Source of the DNA: an uncultured Limnohabitans sp.
Lineage (GTDB): Bacteria > Pseudomonadota > Gammaproteobacteria > Burkholderiales > Burkholderiaceae_C
DNA: 64,000 nucleotides
Direction: 5' to 3'
NCBI GenBank assembly: GCA_963512655.1
Contig: CAUPNL010000002.1
Coordinates: forward strand, 112,748 to 176,747
In this document: piece after piece, positions 25,505 through 42,825 of the stretch
Layout of the letters: each line of letters starts with the position of its first letter
How positions within the stretch are numbered: the stretch's first letter is position 1
Position numbers and translations under genes: made by a program
The notes under the pieces: model-generated
Databases searched by the model: none
Told to the model about the DNA's origin: nothing
What the model saw: the letters and a program-made list of their open reading frames with translations, nothing else

Positions 25505-26062
25505 TCAAACCAAGAGCCGAGAACTCTTAGGCACATGCGCCATCAAAAACTCCATCTGATCCGCCAAGATACGGCGGTTACGCAAGATGAAGTCTTCCCA
25601 CAACGATGGTTCATAAGGTGTGTAAAGAAGCGGCATGCGCGCTTGCTCTGGCGTGCGGTTACCTTTGCGATGGTTGCACGATTTGCACGCCGTCACCACA
25701 TTCATCCACACATTGGGGCCGCCTTGGCCCACGGGGCGAATGTGTTCGCGGGTGAGTTCTGACTCGTGAAAGTGGTCGCCGCAGTAGGCGCAAACGTTGC
25801 GGTCGCGGCTAAAAAGCTTGTCGTTGGTCAGACCCGATTTCAAATCAAACGGGTTGATATTGGGCACACCTTTCGTGCCGATGATGCTGTTGACCGTGAT
25901 GATCGACTGCTGGCCCGTGATGGCATTGGTGCCGCCATGAAACACCGCCACCTCGCCGCCAGATTCCCAGCGTACTTCGTCGGCCGCGTAGTGGAGAACC
26001 GCTTCTTCCAGCGATATCCACGACTGCGGTAGCCCTTGGGCAGACAGTTTCAAGACCTTCAC
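25505..26062 (-). CDS. HNH endonuclease
   Basis: RDRNVCAYCG, TREH, NVVTACKSCNHRKG; GTG start after GAGGT. Confidence 0.9.
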   Translation of the reverse strand: MKVLKLSAQGLPQSWISLEEAVLHYAADEVRWESGGEVAVFHGGTNAITGQQSIITVNSIIGTKGVPNINPFDLKSGLTNDKLFSRDRNVCAYCGDHFHESELTREHIRPVGQGGPNVWMNVVTACKSCNHRKGNRTPEQARMPLLYTPYEPSLWEDFILRNRRILADQMEFLMAHVPKSSRLLV

Positions 26063-35169: not shown

Positions 35170-35251
35170 TCGTAAAAATCACCAGTAAGTCATGAGTTTA
35201 TGTGAGCAATAAGCACGGGCGTGTCACAAACGCTCGGTACCATTGAGGGGT

Positions 35252-37021
35252 ATGTCATCCCTTGAACTCACCCTGCTGTATTTGTGCGCTGCCGTGGTCA
35301 GCGTGGTGGGTTGCCGGCTGCTGCATTTGCCCGCCATGTTGGGCTATTTGTTTGCAGGCGTGGTCATTGGCCCGCACGCCTTGGCCTTGGCCAATAACTC
35401 GGTAGCCATCGAGCACTTGGCTGAATTTGGCGTGGTGTTTTTGATGTTCGTCATCGGCTTGGAATTCAACTTACCCAAACTCATGCGCATGCGCAAGCTG
35501 GTGTTTGGTTTGGGCTTAGGCCAAGTGGTGCTCACGCTGCTGGGCGCCTTGCTGTTTAACTTGGCCTTGGGTTGGCTGCTCAAAGAGTTGGGCTACATCT
35601 GGCGTTTGAGCTGGCAAGCCGCGCTGGCTTTGGGCAGTGCGCTGGCCATGTCGAGCACGGCCATCGTGGTCAAGCTCATGGCAGATCGTGTGGAGCTGGA
35701 GTCACCGCACGGCCAACGCGTGATGGGCGTGCTGCTGTTTCAAGATTTGGCCGTGGTGCCTCTGCTGGTGCTCATCCCCGCACTGGCCGACATGGGTGAA
35801 CACAACCTGTGGAAAGTGTTGTCCATCGCCATGCTCAAAGCTGCGGTGCTGGTGGGCTTGCTGTTGTGGGGTGGCCAACGTGTGATGCGCAGTTGGTTGC
35901 ACTTGGTGGCGCGCCGCAAGAGCGATGAGTTGTTCATGCTCAACCTCTTGTTCATGACGCTGGGCTTGGCGTGGCTCACAGAGCTGGCCGGTTTGTCACT
36001 GGCCATGGGCGCCTTCTTAGCCGGTATGTTGATTGCCGAAACCGATTTCAAACACAAGGTGGAGGCAGACATTCGCCCCTTCCACGATGTGTTGCTGGGC
36101 TTGTTCTTCATCACCATCGGCATGAAGCTCGATTGGGAAGTGTTGATCGACAGCTGGGGCTGGGTGCTGCTGCTGTCCATCGTGCCTTTGTTCCTCAAAG
36201 CGGGTTTGGTGTTTGTGTTGGCCCGCATCACCGGTGCGCCTGCAGGCGTGAGCCTGCGCACCTCGCTGTATTTAGCGCAAGCGGGTGAATTCGGTTTTGT
36301 GCTGTTGACACTGGGCCTGCAAAACGCACTCATCCCCGCTGCGTGGATGAGCCCCATCTTGGCGTCGATGGTGTTGTCGATGATTGCCACACCGTTCTTG
36401 GTGATGAATGCCGACCGCATCGTCAACCGCCTCATCAGCAACGACTGGCTGCTGCAATCGCTGGCCCTCACCGGCATGGCTCAGCGATCGCTCAAGATAG
36501 AAAACCACGTCATCGTGTGCGGCTATGGTCGCAGCGGCCACAACTTGGTGGACTTGCTCAAGCTCGAAAACATTCCCTACGTGGCCCTCGACTCTGACCC
36601 TGACCAAGTGCAAATGGGCCGTGACCATGGCCACCATGTGGAGTTGGGCGACGCCACTCGTTTCTCAAGCCTCATGTCCGCAGGCTTGGTACGTGCCTCT
36701 GCGGTGGCGGTGACTTACCCCGACCTACCCTCGGCGCTCAAGGTGTTGGCATGGGTCAAAGAACACGCACCGCATGTACCTGTGATCGTGCGCACCCATG
36801 ACGACGAACACCTCGAAGACCTACGCGCCGCAGGCGCCGCCGAAGTGGTGCCCGAAGTGATTGAAGGCAGCCTCATGCTTGCCAGCCAAACCTTGGCACA
36901 CATTGGCATTCCCCTCAAACGCGTGCTTCGTTTGGTGCAAGGCCAACGTATGACGCGCTACGCGCTGATGCGCGATGCATTGAAGCACAAAGAGGGTTTG
37001 GAAAATATTCAGCCGCGTTAA
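35252..37021 (+). CDS. CPA2-family cation:proton antiporter with C-terminal TrkA-N (KefB/YbaL-like)
   Basis: AEFGVVFLMFVIGLEF, GVLLFQDLAVVP, GAFLAG, QAGEFGFVL, VIVCGYGRSG. Confidence 0.9.
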   Translation: MSSLELTLLYLCAAVVSVVGCRLLHLPAMLGYLFAGVVIGPHALALANNSVAIEHLAEFGVVFLMFVIGLEFNLPKLMRMRKLVFGLGLGQVVLTLLGALLFNLALGWLLKELGYIWRLSWQAALALGSALAMSSTAIVVKLMADRVELESPHGQRVMGVLLFQDLAVVPLLVLIPALADMGEHNLWKVLSIAMLKAAVLVGLLLWGGQRVMRSWLHLVARRKSDELFMLNLLFMTLGLAWLTELAGLSLAMGAFLAGMLIAETDFKHKVEADIRPFHDVLLGLFFITIGMKLDWEVLIDSWGWVLLLSIVPLFLKAGLVFVLARITGAPAGVSLRTSLYLAQAGEFGFVLLTLGLQNALIPAAWMSPILASMVLSMIATPFLVMNADRIVNRLISNDWLLQSLALTGMAQRSLKIENHVIVCGYGRSGHNLVDLLKLENIPYVALDSDPDQVQMGRDHGHHVELGDATRFSSLMSAGLVRASAVAVTYPDLPSALKVLAWVKEHAPHVPVIVRTHDDEHLEDLRAAGAAEVVPEVIEGSLMLASQTLAHIGIPLKRVLRLVQGQRMTRYALMRDALKHKEGLENIQPR

Positions 37022-37062
37022 CGTGGTGGATGTGCAGCCACTTAGGCTACCGCGCACACGAA

Positions 37063-37476
37063 TCAATGCTTGATTGGCTGTGCCAAAAAATCACGCCATG
37101 CGAGCAACATGGCCTTCACTTCAGGCCAAGTGAATCGACCTTCGGGCTGGTTCCAATACGCCAAGTCATCTGAATCCACATTGCTCTGATTGAACTGCAC
37201 GCCGTTGATGGCCATGTCCACATTGAAAGCATCGCCATCGATAAACCATTTTTCTCGCGCGCCATCTTCGATTTGCGTCATCGCGTGTAGCACCTCATCG
37301 CAGTGCGCCACGTCAGCCATGTCACTGGTCAACCAACTGCACACAAAGCGGTTGAGCGGATGCTGGTGGTCTCCCGTGCCGTCGTCACTCACCCACTCAC
37401 ACGCGGGGTAGTGCACGGGCTGTGCGGCGCTGCCGGGCACAGGCGCTTGTGTTTGGATGAAGCAACGCAGTGACAT
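37063..37476 (-). CDS. Probable immunity protein for the adjacent EndoU nuclease (YacL/CdiI-like by pattern)
   Basis: 137-aa acidic protein without signal peptide, 3 nt downstream of the EndoU stop; WLTSD...F-x-V...LLAWRDFL pattern; function inferred from position. Confidence 0.55.
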   Translation of the reverse strand: MSLRCFIQTQAPVPGSAAQPVHYPACEWVSDDGTGDHQHPLNRFVCSWLTSDMADVAHCDEVLHAMTQIEDGAREKWFIDGDAFNVDMAINGVQFNQSNVDSDDLAYWNQPEGRFTWPEVKAMLLAWRDFLAQPIKH

Positions 37477-37479
37477 GGA

Positions 37480-38040
37480 TCAGTGGCGTTTGCTGTACAC
37501 GGGATAGGCCGTGACGCGTGGTTCTAAGTAACCTTCCACACGCACACCGCTGGGCGTGAGCGCGCTCCATTTCTCACCACGAATGGTTTTGGTGGGGCTG
37601 AACCATGCGGCATTCACCTCGCTCACCACTTGCTCAGCGGTCCAATCTTTGGGGAACATGGTGTTGGGCATAGGGTTGCCGTTGCGGTCGGTTTTGGTGA
37701 GCCACTGGCCTGGGCGTTTGGGGTCTGCCATTTGCACTTGCGCACGGTACACACCGGTGGCGTCAGGGGCAGAGGCTGTACCTTCAATCATGCGCACATC
37801 GCCATTGAGCAAGGTGTGGCCGCCTGTGGGCTCCCCAGTGCGACGTTTGTAATCTGCACCGATGATGTGTTTGAAATCAATGGGGGAGTTGTTGGCAGGC
37901 ATGGCCTCTTGCGCCACGGCCACTGACTTGGCTTTTTCATGCGACGCCGTGTTCGATGAACTGTGCGACCCTTTGTAAGAAAAGAACGCCGACAGCGCGA
38001 CGATCACCAAAGCCAATCCAACACGAATCAATTTATTCAC
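37480..38040 (-). CDS. Bacterial EndoU-family RNase domain with N-terminal signal peptide/TM anchor
   Basis: KHIIG (H58)...TGGH (H75)...LTK (K116)...TMFPKDW...GVRVEGY...TAYP; hydrophobic N-terminus MNKLIRVGLALVIVALSAFF; GTG start overlaps ggt stop. Confidence 0.8.
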   Translation of the reverse strand: MNKLIRVGLALVIVALSAFFSYKGSHSSSNTASHEKAKSVAVAQEAMPANNSPIDFKHIIGADYKRRTGEPTGGHTLLNGDVRMIEGTASAPDATGVYRAQVQMADPKRPGQWLTKTDRNGNPMPNTMFPKDWTAEQVVSEVNAAWFSPTKTIRGEKWSALTPSGVRVEGYLEPRVTAYPVYSKRH

Positions 38041-39865
38041 CCATCACCTCACCTTCACGTCGTGGGTCAGCGCCGCTCCCCCACACGAATTTGTCATTTC
38101 TGTTTTGTTTGACCACGGCTTGCAAGCCGCTGGTCAATGCAAGTTCCCTCACCTCGTGGCCGCGCTCGCGCAAGGCCGCAAGGGTCGCAGGCGCAAAGCG
38201 TCCGCCTTCCAACACGAGTGGGCCGCCCACGCTGCCAAAGTTGGGTAACGCAATGGCTTGCTGCGGGCTCAGGCCCCAGTTCAACACGCCCACCAAAGTT
38301 TTGGCGGTGAAGTGAATGATCATCGCGCCGCCGGGGCTGCCCACACTCATCACCAACTGGCCCGTGGCTTTGTCAAACACCAAAGTGGGTGACATGGACG
38401 AACGCGGGCGTTTGTTGGGCTGCACACGGTTGGCCACAAGGCGGCCCTGCGCATCACGCGGGGCAAAGCTGAAATCGGTCAGCTCGTTGTTGAGCAAAAA
38501 ACCTTTCACCATTTGGCGCGAACCAAACGCATCTTCGATGGTGGTGGTCATGGCCAACGCGTTGCCGTAGCCATCGACGATGCTGATGTGTGAGGTACCG
38601 TACTCAGGCTGCTCCACCATGGGCGCAAAGCTGCTGCGTTGCGCACGCACGGGCACACCAGGCAAGGCTTGCGGCATGGCAGTGGGGCGAATGAGTTTGG
38701 CGCGCTCACCCAGATACGCAGGGGCCAGCAAACTTTGCCATTCGCCGCTGGGGGCCGGCGCAAAGTCGGGGTCGGCCACATACAAGGCACGGTCGGCAAA
38801 GGCCAAGCGCGAGGCTTCGGTGTACAGATGCAACCAACGCGGGTCAGGCGTGCCGTCCACGGCCTCAGTCGGGGGCGACATCAATGATGCGGGTGTGTGC
38901 TGCAACATGCCCAGTATTTGGCCAATGGCAATCGCGCCCGAACTGGGCGGTGGAAAACCACACACGCGGTAGACACGGCTCGCGGCAGCATGGTCAAAAC
39001 ACACAGGCGTGCGCTCTTTGGCTTGGTAGTTGGCCAAGTCGCTCAATGCCAAGCGTCCTGGATTGCTGGGGTGCTGCTGCACTTTGCGTACCACGGCCTC
39101 GGCCACCTCGCCACTGTAAAACGCTTGCACGCCCTCAGTGGCGATGCGTTGCAACACAGCGGCCAACTCTGGGTTGCGCAACACATGGCCGATCGCGTGC
39201 GGCTCGCCATTGGCTTGGTAGAAGTAAGCGCGGGCTGATGCGTCTAAACGCAAATACGCATCCGCCTTGAGCTGCGCGTGCAAACGCGGGCTGATGGCAA
39301 AACCTTGATTCGCAAGCGCAATGGCAGGCTCAAACAATTTGGCCCATGGCAGCTTGCCGTGTTGGGCATGCGCTTGCGCCAACATGCGCAACACGCCGGG
39401 TGTGCCCACCGAGCGACCGCCCACCACGGCTGCGTGAAACGCCAGTGGTTTGCCATCGGCATTGAGCAGCATGTCTTCGGTGGCTGCTGCGGGGGCAGTT
39501 TCACGGCCATCAAAGGCCTGCACTTTGGCATTTGCAGTTGCGCCATCACCCGCTGTGCTGTGCAGCAAAAATGCACCGCCACCCAGGCCACTGGATTGCG
39601 GCTCGACCAAGCCCAACACCATTTGCACGGCGATGGCGGCATCGACCGCCGAGCCGCCTGCTGTCAACATCTCAAAGCCTGCTTGTGTGGCCAAGGGGTT
39701 GGCCGCAGCCACTGCAAATTTTTGGGTGACGACATCGGCTTTGCGCGTGAACCCTGTGGCGATTTCGGGTTGCAGTGGTGTGTTGTTGTGGAGCTGCGTG
39801 GTGCACGCCCCCAACAACAACACCACCACCACAACGCAGCAGTGCGAACGAGTCGAAGTGCCCAT
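38033..39865 (-). CDS. ggt: Gamma-glutamyltransferase, probable lipoprotein
   Basis: AANPLAT..G, LVEPQSSGLGGG, DGRETAP, GTSHISIVD nucleophile Thr, KRPRSSMSP; lipobox LLGAC; start could be 39931. Confidence 0.94.
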   Translation of the reverse strand: MGTSTRSHCCVVVVVLLLGACTTQLHNNTPLQPEIATGFTRKADVVTQKFAVAAANPLATQAGFEMLTAGGSAVDAAIAVQMVLGLVEPQSSGLGGGAFLLHSTAGDGATANAKVQAFDGRETAPAAATEDMLLNADGKPLAFHAAVVGGRSVGTPGVLRMLAQAHAQHGKLPWAKLFEPAIALANQGFAISPRLHAQLKADAYLRLDASARAYFYQANGEPHAIGHVLRNPELAAVLQRIATEGVQAFYSGEVAEAVVRKVQQHPSNPGRLALSDLANYQAKERTPVCFDHAAASRVYRVCGFPPPSSGAIAIGQILGMLQHTPASLMSPPTEAVDGTPDPRWLHLYTEASRLAFADRALYVADPDFAPAPSGEWQSLLAPAYLGERAKLIRPTAMPQALPGVPVRAQRSSFAPMVEQPEYGTSHISIVDGYGNALAMTTTIEDAFGSRQMVKGFLLNNELTDFSFAPRDAQGRLVANRVQPNKRPRSSMSPTLVFDKATGQLVMSVGSPGGAMIIHFTAKTLVGVLNWGLSPQQAIALPNFGSVGGPLVLEGGRFAPATLAALRERGHEVRELALTSGLQAVVKQNRNDKFVWGSGADPRREGEVMGE

Positions 39866-39927
39866 GTCAAGAAAGAAACGCTTGCGAGATGATTCAGCCC
39901 GACATGCGTGAGGCACACGCTCATCCA

Positions 39928-41202
39928 TCATTTCTTAAATACTCTGTTGTGCAGCCGTCGCATCGACAGCCACACCAACAAGCCTACAAACGGCAAAGCG
40001 CAAGCGGCTGTCAGGTCAGGTGAGAACGGCCAACCCACCTTCTCGGCGCCCTTGGCCAAGTAGCTCACCAAGCCCGTGAAGTAATAGGTGATCGCCGCCA
40101 CGGACAAACCCTCCACCGTGGACTGCATTTTGAGTTGCAAGTCTTGGCGTTGGTTCATGGTGGTGAGCAAGGCTTGGCTGCTTTGTTGTTGCTCAAAGTC
40201 GACCCGTGTGCGTAACAAGTTACTCATGCGTGAGACGCGTTCAGACAATGCGTTTTGACGGCGCGAAGCCCAGTCACAGGTGCTGCGTGCGGGCGACAGG
40301 CGACGCTCCATGAATTCAGCAATGGTTTGCATGCCGGGCATGCGCGACTCGGCAATGTCACGGATGCGGCGATCGACCAGCTCAAAGTAAGCGCGCGTGG
40401 CCGAGAAGCGTGAATGGGTGGCAGCGTACTGCCCTTCGACCTCGCCCGCAAGACGCGTCAAACGGTCCAACAAGCCCGCTTCATCGGCACGCTTGGCATG
40501 GCGAATGGCATGGGCCAGTTCGGCCAATTCACGTTCGGCATCGGCCAACACATGCGAGGCTTCACGAGCGGCGGGCACGCCCAACAGGGCCGCCATGCGG
40601 TAGGTTTCAATCTCCAACAACTGCTGCACCAACCGGCCTTGACGGCGCGGCGTGAGCGAGCCGGTCAACAACACCATGCGCGAAAAACCATCGGGGTGCA
40701 ACTGAAAATCGGTGTACACCTCGCCGTGCCCTTCGGCCACGGTGGAGGCAACCAAGGTGTCCTCATGCAGCACCTTGGGCATGTCTGTGTGAATGTCCAA
40801 GGTAGACGACGGCACAAGCCACACATGCAAACGCGCCAAGCACTCACCAGGCAACTGGGTCAACCATTTTTGGGGGACAGCTTGCACAGCTGTCATGGGC
40901 TCTGACTGCGCAAACACATCCGAGCTCACAGGGCGCATGAAAGTCCATGACACAAACTCGGTGTGCAGCTCCCAACGTAGGCGAAACGAGCCCAGATCCA
41001 TGCGCACATGGTTGGTCTGCGCATCAGGCGCGGGTAAATGGTGATCGTGCAGCAACTGCGCCAAGTGGTCGCGACTCGCTTGCGCACTGGCACGGTCCAC
41101 CCACATGACCACGCGCGAAATCACCTGCGGTGCCTGCATGGGCTCTGGGGGACGTGCGTGCACTTCGTTGTGCAGGGCCAGTCGTTGGGGGTGGTCGATC
41201 AT
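39928..41202 (-). CDS. DUF3422-like membrane-anchored protein
   Basis: HPQRLALHNEVHARP, WELHTEF, GRLVQQLLEIETYRM, QSTVEGLSVAAITYY. Confidence 0.82.
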   Translation of the reverse strand: MIDHPQRLALHNEVHARPPEPMQAPQVISRVVMWVDRASAQASRDHLAQLLHDHHLPAPDAQTNHVRMDLGSFRLRWELHTEFVSWTFMRPVSSDVFAQSEPMTAVQAVPQKWLTQLPGECLARLHVWLVPSSTLDIHTDMPKVLHEDTLVASTVAEGHGEVYTDFQLHPDGFSRMVLLTGSLTPRRQGRLVQQLLEIETYRMAALLGVPAAREASHVLADAERELAELAHAIRHAKRADEAGLLDRLTRLAGEVEGQYAATHSRFSATRAYFELVDRRIRDIAESRMPGMQTIAEFMERRLSPARSTCDWASRRQNALSERVSRMSNLLRTRVDFEQQQSSQALLTTMNQRQDLQLKMQSTVEGLSVAAITYYFTGLVSYLAKGAEKVGWPFSPDLTAACALPFVGLLVWLSMRRLHNRVFKK

Positions 41203-41260
41203 TGATCACTTTCAAAAACGCATTGAACGGCCAATATAAACGAAGCTCAAGCTTGCCCCA

Positions 41261-41289
41261 ACGAAAAACGGCACCCGAAGGTGCCGTTT
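41261..41289 (-). terminator. Terminator of tctA
   Basis: Minus strand AAACGGCACC-TTCG-GGTGCCGTTT then TTCGT. Confidence 0.8.
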
Positions 41290-41313
41290 GAAGGTGAAAC
41301 AGTTTGAACTGAA

Positions 41314-42825
41314 TTACTCTTCCACGAAGGCTTCTTCGCGTTTGGACTTGATGGAGGGCAGCAGCACGATCACCAAGAGCAAGGCCGCCGCCGCCAACAA
41401 ACCAGCTGACAAGGGACGTGTACCGAACACAGTCCAGTCACCACGTGACAGCAACAAGGCGCGACGCAGGTTTTCTTCCATCATCGGCCCTAGGATGAAG
41501 CCGAGCAACAAAGGCGCAGGCTCTACACCTAACTTCATGAAGAGGTAACCAATCAAGCCAAAGCCAGCCACCATCCAGATGTCGAAGGTGTTGTTGTTGG
41601 TCGAGTACACACCGATCGCGCAGAACAGCACGATGGCAGGGAACAAGAAGCGGTAAGGCACTGACAACAACTTGATCCACATGCCGATCAAAGGCAAGTT
41701 CAAGATCACAAGCATCAAGTTACCAATCCACATCGAGGCAATCAGACCCCAGAACAACTCGGGGTTGCTGGTCATCACCTGTGGGCCGGGTTGGATGTTG
41801 TGAATGGTCATCGCACCCACCATCAAAGCCATCACGGCGTTGGGTGGAATACCCAAGGTGAGCAAGGGAATGAACGAGGTTTGTGCACCTGCGTTGTTGG
41901 CAGCTTCAGGCGCAGCCACACCGCGGATGTTGCCTTGACCGAAGGGCACTTCACCAGGTTGAAGTTTGGTTTTCTTTTCGATCGTGTAAGCGGCAAACGC
42001 AGCCAACAACGCACCGCCACCAGGCAACACACCGAGCATCGAACCCAAGGCAGTGCCACGAAGCACCGCAGGCATCATGTTCTTGAAGTCTTCCTTGGTG
42101 GGGAACAAACCTTCCACCTTGGCAGTGAACACTTCGCGGTCTTCTTCGGGGCGCGACAAGTTCGAGATGATCTCGCCGTAACCGAACACGCCCATCGCCA
42201 CCACCACGAAGCCCACACCGTCGGTGAGTTCGGGGATGTCAAAGCTGAAACGCGCTACGCCAGAGTTGACGTCGGTACCGATCAAGCCCATCAAAAGACC
42301 CAACACGATCATGGCAATCGCCTTGAGCAAGGAGCCCGAAGCCAACACCACCGCGCCGACCAAGCCCAAGATCATGAGCGAGAAATATTCGGCAGGGCCG
42401 AACTTGAACGCGAGTTCGGTCAAAGGAGGCGCGAAGGCAGCCAAGATCAACGTACCCACAGAACCGGCGAAGAACGAACCCAAACCAGCAGCCGCCAAAG
42501 CGGGGCCTGCACGGCCTTTGCGGGCCATTTGGTAGCCGTCAATGGTGGTCACCACCGACGACGATTCACCAGGCAAGTTCACCAAAATCGCGGTGGTCGA
42601 ACCACCGTATTGAGCACCGTAGTAAATACCGGCCAACATGATCAGCGCCGACACAGGGGGTAGCGCGTACGTGGCAGGCAACAACATGGCGATGGTCGCC
42701 ACTGGGCCGATGCCTGGCAACACGCCAATCAGCGTGCCCAAGATACAACCGACCAAGGCGTACATCAGGTTAACCGGCGTGAAGGCCACGCCAAAACCTA
42801 GTGAGAGGTTTGCAATCAAATCCAT
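41314..42825 (-). CDS. tctA: Tripartite tricarboxylate transporter large permease
   Basis: GVLPGIGP, YGAQYGGSTTAIL.NLPGE, PEAANNA, LTLGIPPN. Confidence 0.95.
   Translation of the reverse strand: MDLIANLSLGFGVAFTPVNLMYALVGCILGTLIGVLPGIGPVATIAMLLPATYALPPVSALIMLAGIYYGAQYGGSTTAILVNLPGESSSVVTTIDGYQMARKGRAGPALAAAGLGSFFAGSVGTLILAAFAPPLTELAFKFGPAEYFSLMILGLVGAVVLASGSLLKAIAMIVLGLLMGLIGTDVNSGVARFSFDIPELTDGVGFVVVAMGVFGYGEIISNLSRPEEDREVFTAKVEGLFPTKEDFKNMMPAVLRGTALGSMLGVLPGGGALLAAFAAYTIEKKTKLQPGEVPFGQGNIRGVAAPEAANNAGAQTSFIPLLTLGIPPNAVMALMVGAMTIHNIQPGPQVMTSNPELFWGLIASMWIGNLMLVILNLPLIGMWIKLLSVPYRFLFPAIVLFCAIGVYSTNNNTFDIWMVAGFGLIGYLFMKLGVEPAPLLLGFILGPMMEENLRRALLLSRGDWTVFGTRPLSAGLLAAAALLLVIVLLPSIKSKREEAFVEE

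Follow-up and report, generated by a model that had tools for sequence, protein, structure and literature searches.

This report concerns a pair of adjacent genes in a 64,000-nucleotide stretch of DNA (the window, whose numbering is used throughout) from an uncultured Limnohabitans sp. (GenBank assembly GCA_963512655.1, contig CAUPNL010000002.1, positions 112,748 to 176,747). The first gene encodes a 186-residue protein in which an EndoU ribonuclease (RNase) domain stands behind an export leader, and the second encodes a 137-residue acidic protein that is predicted to be its cytoplasmic inhibitor or immunity protein. The EndoU gene occupies 37480..38040 on the minus strand, given as the open reading frame (ORF) including the stop codon. 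It starts with GTG, which is preceded by a Shine-Dalgarno-like AGGTGA, and its start shares 8 nt with the stop of the upstream gene ggt. The ATG of the partner gene (ORF 37063..37476, minus strand) lies 3 nt beyond the EndoU stop codon. The isoelectric point (pI) of the EndoU domain is 9.5 and that of the partner is 4.5, and the partner contains no hydrophobic segment. An earlier inspection of the window (hereafter, the sequence-only reading) had described the first product as a basic tip, a hydrophobic helix, and a Ser-rich linker ahead of the domain, and the second as an acidic protein lacking a signal peptide; both ORFs were found with these features. The pair is far beyond chance because it recurs in 27 genomes, with ratios of nonsynonymous to synonymous substitution rates (dN/dS) of 0.13 for the EndoU domain and 0.20 for the partner, and the two products are very probably a toxin and its inhibitor.

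The EndoU catalytic domain comprises codons 51-186 (37483..37890, minus strand) and contains H58, H75, and K116. The proposal that it is a His-His-Lys EndoU domain was borne out by a hidden Markov model (HMM) search, in which residues 55-181 scored 61.9 bits with EndoU_bacteria (Pfam PF14436; cutoff 25.3; E = 1.1e-16) and aligned to profile positions 4-128 of 129. The 186-residue protein is the sole EndoU match in the 2.49-Mb genome. All of the residues that had been singled out, i.e., H58, GGH75, K116, TMFPK (127-131), W133, and AYP (178-180), are unchanged in 25 homologues down to 67% identity, and the His-His-Lys set falls within the 70 invariant alignment columns of the EndoU homologues. 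The domain was modeled by AlphaFold2 with a predicted local distance difference test (pLDDT) score of ~84-97. The top fold match of the model in the PDB is XendoU (2c1w), with a probability of 0.95, but the match is weak (E = 0.039, template-modeling score TM = 0.40 over the full-length query), and PDB sequence searches with both proteins of the pair and both profiles gave nothing significant. The EndoU homologues form 263 clusters; the closest named homologue among them is annotated as an EndoU domain-containing protein and comes from Limnohabitans sp. INBF002. The protein is presumably an active RNase.

The export leader, MNKLIRVGLALVIVALSAFFSY, takes up codons 1-22 (37975..38040, minus strand) and has the appearance of a signal peptide of the general secretory (Sec) pathway or of a signal anchor. 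It consists of a basic tip with K3 and R6 and a 15-residue hydrophobic core, and the maximum Kyte-Doolittle value in a 19-residue window is 2.1, at residue 4. The leader is followed by a low-complexity Ser/Ala/His/Lys linker (codons 23-50; 37891..37974, minus strand) that coincides with indel-rich alignment columns; residues 22-45 are disordered in the AlphaFold model, with a pLDDT below 50. A candidate cleavage site can be read after ALSA19 in the window allele and is possible there. In the tree of the EndoU-plus-partner sequences, the cassettes fall into three types, each of which is a clade. Type I, the type of the window, has the helix and a linker of variable length (27-50 residues) and no AxA motif. 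The leaders of type II end in ...SG(L/V/A)ASA|RSPID and those of type III in ...A(W/L/M)A|FSPSSPID; the linker is absent from both types, and their signal-peptidase I sites directly abut the first conserved residues of the domain. Because the cleavage site directly precedes the domain, the mature type II or III protein is a bare domain of ~133 residues with no entry or receptor module. Textbook Sec signal peptides of this kind, each with a signal-peptidase I site, are present in 14 sister alleles, and neither a lipobox nor a conserved twin-arginine (Tat) motif was read in the leaders of the EndoU homologues. A Pfam search of the EndoU protein found no other trafficking domain, which leaves the Sec-type leader as its sole trafficking module. 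Sec export of the EndoU family is well supported by these predicted leaders, and the earlier view of the protein as exported stands, given the canonical ASA|RSP or AxA|FSP sites immediately before the domain in the sister alleles.

The type I leader is of the kind expected of a tether, since it lacks an AxA site and continues into a flexible linker of variable length. It could thus belong to a periplasmic guard, i.e., an enzyme held at the inner membrane by an uncleaved leader and linker that destroys incoming RNA such as pilus-dependent RNA phage genomes. The clean cleavage sites and the missing linker of types II and III speak against this, and because these alleles are cleavable and linkerless, a tether does not characterize the family. 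There are also no defence genes within ~15 kb on each side of the pair, and we know of no precedent for such a guard, which we consider quite improbable. The same 14 signal peptides argue against the proposal that the pair is an intracellular toxin-antitoxin (addiction) module, which would have the hydrophobic N-terminus play no part in export and confine the RNase to the cytoplasm of its producer. Two small coupled genes for a basic RNase and an acidic neutralizer would suit such a module, as would the relationship of the EndoU fold to RelE (PMC3482391). The locus, however, is chromosomal, vertically inherited, and without a mobile-element context, and its neutralizer does not look labile (pLDDT 91). 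Like the export signal, the downstream position of the partner, its well-folded model, and its lack of a DNA-binding domain set the pair apart from type II toxin-antitoxin systems, and we regard an addiction module as very improbable.

The partner is not recognized by any Pfam or NCBIfam model at its cutoff. Its AlphaFold2 model is confident (pLDDT 91) and has an alpha+beta fold; a comparison of this model with PDB folds returned no match (E = 0.24 for the top candidate, a PUR repeat), so that no known immunity fold can be assigned to it. Residues Y23, C26, E27, W28, N42, W48, D52, D80, G81, and Q94-N96 of the partner are invariant. A profile of the partner was searched against 1.84 billion representative proteins and defined a small family of 38 representative proteins at E <= 0.001, in which the more distant members are mostly 135-150 residues long. 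One match of the profile, P0248 (2397 residues), was rejected as spurious; this repetitive, adhesin-like protein hits one short Cys motif 20 times over.

The genes of these distant relatives are found next to EndoU genes. In Motiliproteus sp. MSK22-1, in metagenome-assembled genomes (MAGs) of Geopsychrobacteraceae and Cellvibrionaceae, and in a JGI metagenome contig, an EndoU_bacteria ORF is followed 5-15 nt later by the start of a partner relative. The corresponding gene of Pseudomonas sp. BGI-2 (L062) comes after an ORF of 992 residues or more that has four Fil_haemagg_2 stretches and ends in the EndoU domain; by its domain makeup, this protein is a CdiA-type effector. The partner relatives of Motiliproteus, the two MAGs, and Pseudomonas sp. 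BGI-2 are at 24-33% identity. An ENA contig encodes an Rhs toxin with a nuclease tip and an immunity gene of its own, downstream of which the EndoU-partner pair forms an orphan module. In Chitiniphilus and in Pseudomonas sp. R1-7, just a C-terminal EndoU remnant remains ahead of an intact partner-family gene, and P. allokribbensis has two tandem partner-family copies among the small genes of an array to which CdiI_3 also belongs; outside Limnohabitans, the partner family thus occurs in orphan modules and immunity arrays as well. The equivalents of H58, H75, and K116 are retained in the EndoU toxins of Motiliproteus and the JGI metagenome contig (L035). The EndoU domain of Limnohabitans is 54-57% identical to the partner-linked EndoU tips of Motiliproteus and Pseudomonas sp. 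BGI-2. From this identity and from the contexts of the relatives, it follows that the EndoU domain and the partner descend together from a warhead-antidote module of polymorphic toxins. The assignment of the partner as the cognate immunity protein or inhibitor of the EndoU protein, from an uncatalogued family, is strongly supported by these gene contexts.

Three further arrangements were seen among the relatives. The array of P. allokribbensis (CP062252, L033 5001-7966) consists of six small same-strand genes beside sbcCD, among them the two partner copies, CdiI_3, a PM0498-family gene, and a gene for a HEAT-repeat protein, and looks like an orphan-immunity island. A protein of 253 residues in the representative library (P0250) joins a partner-like N-terminal half to an EndoU C-terminal half (NTMFPKDW...TPSGV...) without the two catalytic His residues; either two gene calls were merged or the protein is a fused remnant, and it would link the EndoU and partner families independently. 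The JGI metagenome contig (L035 3649-4995) encodes a 448-residue EndoU toxin whose start resembles a signal peptide and in which ~150 residues form a Gln/Arg-rich low-complexity region; a partner-family gene comes next. By its sequence, it is another leader-type EndoU protein, but with a long spacer and a middle region without a family assignment.

The sole recurring family signal of the partner is UPF0231/YacL (PF06062), for which all matches remain below the 25-bit cutoff. The partner of the window scores 21.1 bits; 20 of 24 Limnohabitans partners match at E <= 0.01 (best, 3.7e-5), as do 4 of 27 in a more diverse set. The partner HMM gives the E. coli YacL 7.3 bits, a score that was reached by 5 of 5000 shuffles, and an hhalign comparison of the partner with the single E. 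coli YacL sequence has a probability below 1%. The two proteins are alike in size and acidity. The yacL gene is not adjacent to an RNase gene, and a literature search returned no paper tying PF06062 to immunity. YacL is known just as an RNA-polymerase- and NusG-associated protein of E. coli of otherwise unassigned function (PMC8196013). Homology of the partner to YacL/UPF0231 is plausible on these scores and, if true, would be the first functional lead for the UPF0231 family.

In a sample of 139 species-level Limnohabitans genomes, the EndoU gene is present in 27 and the partner gene in exactly the same 27, always adjacent (16 of 64 when good-quality genomes are considered). Both ORFs are intact in 26 of them, and the 27th locus is interrupted by a contig end. 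The gene order is constant in every locus that reaches far enough, namely, ggt, EndoU, partner, and a convergent kefB-like gene, and the spacing from ggt to the pair is 0-95 nt across the 27 genomes and all three cassette types. No alternative toxin tips, swapped warheads, or downstream orphan modules were found at the 27 loci, which differ just in the allelic types I-III, and no orphan partner gene was found in the 112 pair-less genomes of the genus. The pair tracks the lineage of the host: in all 27 pair-bearing genomes, the kefB gene is at least 83% identical to that of the window, and none of the genomes with a kefB identity of 70% or less has the pair. In ten pair-less genomes with a kefB identity of 80-90%, ggt and kefB remain convergent neighbours. 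On the ggt tree, two state changes suffice to explain the distribution (one gain and one loss of the pair), and we therefore conclude that the cassette was inserted once and then inherited vertically.

The ggt-kefB junction (37022-38032 in the window; L039 and L047-L055) is itself variable, being empty, holding a gap of ~1 kb, or holding the EndoU-partner cassette. The stops of ggt and kefB are 10-60 nt apart in three of the ten pair-less genomes (G321, G269, and G288), and the remaining seven have the ~1-kb gap, whose content was read in one of them (G210) and is an EamA transporter gene. A replacement of the periplasmic RNase T2 by the EndoU protein was also considered and set aside; RNase T2 (the family of E. 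coli RNase I) is absent from the whole genus except for one of the 139 genomes, so there is no anticorrelation to exploit, and that one copy is broken by four in-frame TGA codons. Most Limnohabitans thus seem to lack the usual periplasmic RNase, and this counts in favour of the exported-RNase reading proposed below.

Selection on the locus was assessed by pairwise Nei-Gojobori estimates. Median dN/dS is 0.13 for the EndoU domain, 0.20 for the partner, 0.12 for ggt, and 0.07 for kefB, and the median dS is ~1.0 for the EndoU domain and ~1.6 for the partner; both genes of the pair are under purifying selection. These values bear directly on the idea that the pair is a toxin cassette in decay that no longer has a function. 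Decay of this kind has parallels among the relatives, where the EndoU fragments of Chitiniphilus and Pseudomonas sp. R1-7 stand beside intact immunity genes. In Limnohabitans, on the other hand, the ORFs are intact in all but the truncated locus, the catalytic residues show no variation, and low dN/dS values go with considerable synonymous divergence. The selection data effectively refute a remnant, which we regard as extremely improbable.

The pairwise distances of the EndoU domain and the partner correlate with each other (Spearman coefficient 0.64, versus 0.10-0.34 with the flanks), and the partial correlation given the flanks is 0.59, which no permutation out of 5000 attained. Since the related genomes are not independent, this correlation indicates a shared history as a unit rather than residue-level co-evolution. 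The sequence-only reading had named the downstream gene as a cognate immunity-like gene and had proposed that co-occurrence and co-variation of the two genes be examined across genomes; the presence of both genes in 27 of 27 genomes, the correlated distances, and the placement of the relatives behind the EndoU tips of CdiA-type and Rhs-linked toxins all agree with that assignment. Types I and II are interleaved on the trees of the flanking genes with weak support; together with a synonymous divergence of the partner that disagrees with the flanks (values given below), this suggests that partner or cassette alleles have been exchanged between lineages, with the reservation that the comparison involves short genes and nearly saturated dS.

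Upstream of the pair lie ggt (38033..39931, minus strand; PF01019, E = 1.9e-146), which encodes a periplasmic gamma-glutamyltranspeptidase and forms the conserved left flank, and a gene for a DUF3422 membrane protein (39928..41202, minus strand; PF11902, E = 7.7e-159), which is probably the first gene of the operon. Four nucleotides are shared by the DUF3422 gene and the start of ggt. Behind tctA stands a hairpin with a T-run (41264..41286, minus strand; CGGCACC-TTCG-GGTGCCG followed by TTTTT, as read from the sequence), which probably ends the upstream transcript; the transcript of the pair would begin beyond it. The ggt/DUF3422 overlap, the spacing between ggt and the pair, and this preceding hairpin make a DUF3422-ggt-EndoU-partner unit likely. 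A second terminator-like hairpin with a T-run (37095-37113, minus strand) lies in the last 50 nt of the partner coding sequence and may be the operon terminator. The conserved right flank is the convergent kefB-like K+/H+ antiporter gene (35243..37021, plus strand; Na_H_Exchanger and TrkA_N), the end of which is 41 nt from the partner gene. A promoter scan of 36900-41500 found no sigma-70-like site, and terminator-like matches occurred there at the background rate. For ~15 kb on each side, the genes are of the housekeeping kind (rsmB, ribF, ileS, lspA, dehydrogenases, EamA transporters, TctA/B, recJ, a LolC/E-like permease, and tatD). No secretion, Rhs, CdiA/B, mobile-element, or defence genes were found over the same distance; together with the Pfam result for the EndoU protein, this upholds the earlier statement that the pair has neither a trafficking domain nor secretion genes nearby.

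In the mechanism that we propose, the first gene would produce a basic EndoU RNase of ~15 kDa behind a Sec leader, which would be exported unfolded to the periplasm. The enzyme of the window allele might be tethered by, or released with, its flexible linker of 30 residues. The acidic partner, a putative stoichiometric inhibitor, would stay in the cytoplasm, where it would bind and block any enzyme that folds before export or re-enters the cell, and the RNA of the producer would thereby be protected. The cassette comes from a warhead-antidote module of the CdiA/Rhs type and entered the ggt-kefB junction a single time, in the ancestor of one Limnohabitans clade. Purifying selection has retained it there, and it would now be co-transcribed with the periplasmic ggt. 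The whole of this explanation, including the role of the enzyme as an exported RNase against which the producer is protected and whose substrate is RNA beyond the cytoplasm, either in scavenging or in diffuse antagonism, is one that we hold tentatively, with somewhat less than even confidence.

Several observations weigh against this exported, self-protected RNase. Within the same genome pairs, the partner has a dN 5-10x as high as the flanks, e.g., 0.227 versus 0.018-0.038 for G000/G119. Its dS is discordant with the flanks in either direction (1.73 versus 0.40-0.60 for G000/G119 at L002, and 0.02 versus 0.16-0.23 for G000/G233 at L007). Rates like these would be more usual in a conflict gene than in an inhibitor with a housekeeping role. 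Moreover, the leader of the window allele, having no AxA motif, is compatible with either cleavage or anchoring, and the likely operon membership with ggt is deduced from gene spacing. Finally, we know of no bacterial EndoU protein with a documented role in scavenging; all of the characterized relatives known to us are toxins.

The rates of the partner would be better explained if the pair were an active antibacterial weapon, i.e., a leader-only polymorphic toxin or bacteriocin that leaves the cell via type II secretion, outer-membrane vesicles (OMVs), or lysis and enters competitors without an entry domain, while the partner protects siblings. The very high dN and discordant dS of the partner suggest allele exchange or diversifying pressure, the weakly supported interleaving of divergent cassette types on the flank trees points the same way, and both proteins descend from CdiA/Rhs warhead-immunity modules. 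Toxins with nothing but a signal peptide are, furthermore, treated as a major class (PMC3482391). The mature type II or III protein, however, has none of the entry or receptor regions that CdiA-CT toxins, colicins, and MafB need, and for this reason we lean slightly toward an exported RNase over an injected weapon. A single warhead is present at all 27 loci without swapped tips or orphan modules, the pair-less genomes hold no orphan immunity gene, and the nuclease is conservative (dN/dS 0.13). The gene is also coupled to ggt, whose product is a periplasmic nutrient-scavenging enzyme. Plankton lives at low cell density, and this generally disfavours such weapons. A fixed vertical locus with one warhead, no orphan immunity, and coupling to ggt fit a domesticated exo-RNase at least as well, and an antibacterial weapon appears unlikely to us, although it deserves serious consideration. 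The antibacterial role that had been assigned to the pair from its sequence was accordingly not sustained: the case for it is the ancestry of the genes, and several features suit a domesticated exo-RNase at least equally.

The pair can be compared with several known systems. Polymorphic toxins (Zhang et al. 2011, PMC3113570; 2012, PMC3482391) resemble it in having a C-terminal toxin domain with a cognate immunity gene immediately downstream, and the general secretory pathway is their most prevalent route (PMC3482391). CdiA-CT(EndoU)/CdiI and Rhs-CT(EndoU) modules share with it the EndoU subfamily, the immunity family, the gene order, and a spacer of a few nucleotides. The nearest concrete relative is the Fil_haemagg_2 and EndoU protein of Pseudomonas sp. 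BGI-2 with its downstream gene, which has 55% domain identity. Unlike the CdiA/Rhs systems, the Limnohabitans protein has no haemagglutinin or Rhs repeats, no pretoxin or entry region, and no CdiB (as judged for the protein and ~15 kb around it), and its domain stands directly behind the Sec leader. The Limnohabitans locus itself is not polymorphic, because one warhead occupies a fixed chromosomal site in the 27 genomes. MafB/MafI of Neisseria are Sec-dependent polymorphic toxins, one with an EndoU tip (PMC4287609). As in the Limnohabitans pair, a signal peptide takes the place of a dedicated secretion domain, some alleles carry an EndoU warhead, and the immunity gene lies downstream; the N-terminal domain of MafB (~300 residues, DUF1020), MafA, and the islands of alternative C-terminal cassettes, on the other hand, have no counterpart in the Limnohabitans locus.

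A further comparison is offered by barnase-barstar of Bacillus amyloliquefaciens (and also by binase and RNase Sa), in which a secreted RNase is paired with an intracellular inhibitor. By analogy, the Limnohabitans pair would likewise combine a small basic RNase that has a signal peptide and no delivery domain with an adjacent, leaderless acidic inhibitor for self-protection. The sequence families of both enzyme and inhibitor are different; neither protein of the pair matched barnase or barstar in sequence or fold, and the partner model has no PDB fold match at all. Since the Limnohabitans host is Gram-negative, unlike the host of barnase, Sec export here ends in the periplasm.

The kind of system is therefore already known, both as leader-only polymorphic toxins and in the logic of barnase-barstar. 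The suggestion that the pair is an undescribed system does not hold in this form, since toxins with nothing but a Sec leader are a recognized class (PMC3482391), as barnase-barstar has long been. What is new is the combination of an EndoU tip cut down to a leader and a domain, an immunity family without a Pfam model that is cognate to CdiA- and Rhs-linked EndoU tips, and the fixation of both in the ggt operon of an abundant freshwater genus. Limnohabitans are among the most abundant and fastest-growing members of the freshwater bacterioplankton, and the pair is present in hundreds of metagenome-derived protein clusters. The locus indicates that the warhead and antidote of a contact toxin can shrink to a leader-only exported enzyme and then become a stable member of a chromosomal operon. 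Either a toxin has been domesticated here into a barnase-like exo-RNase, or the locus attests that a bare nuclease domain is still deliverable, and in both cases an immunity family that lacks a Pfam model is now defined with a clear cognate toxin. A bolder combination, in which the bare EndoU domain is a working toxin that reaches the cytoplasm of other bacteria by vesicle fusion or domain-intrinsic uptake and, independently, the immunity family is an ancestor or sister of YacL/UPF0231, which would suggest RNase inhibition as the function of that E. coli family, is improbable in our estimation; were the bare-domain toxin real, its delivery route would be one not described for nuclease toxins.

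Elsewhere in the window, a stand-alone HNH endonuclease of 185 residues (HNH_5/HNH) is encoded at 25505-26062 on the minus strand, between rsmB and ribF in housekeeping surroundings.

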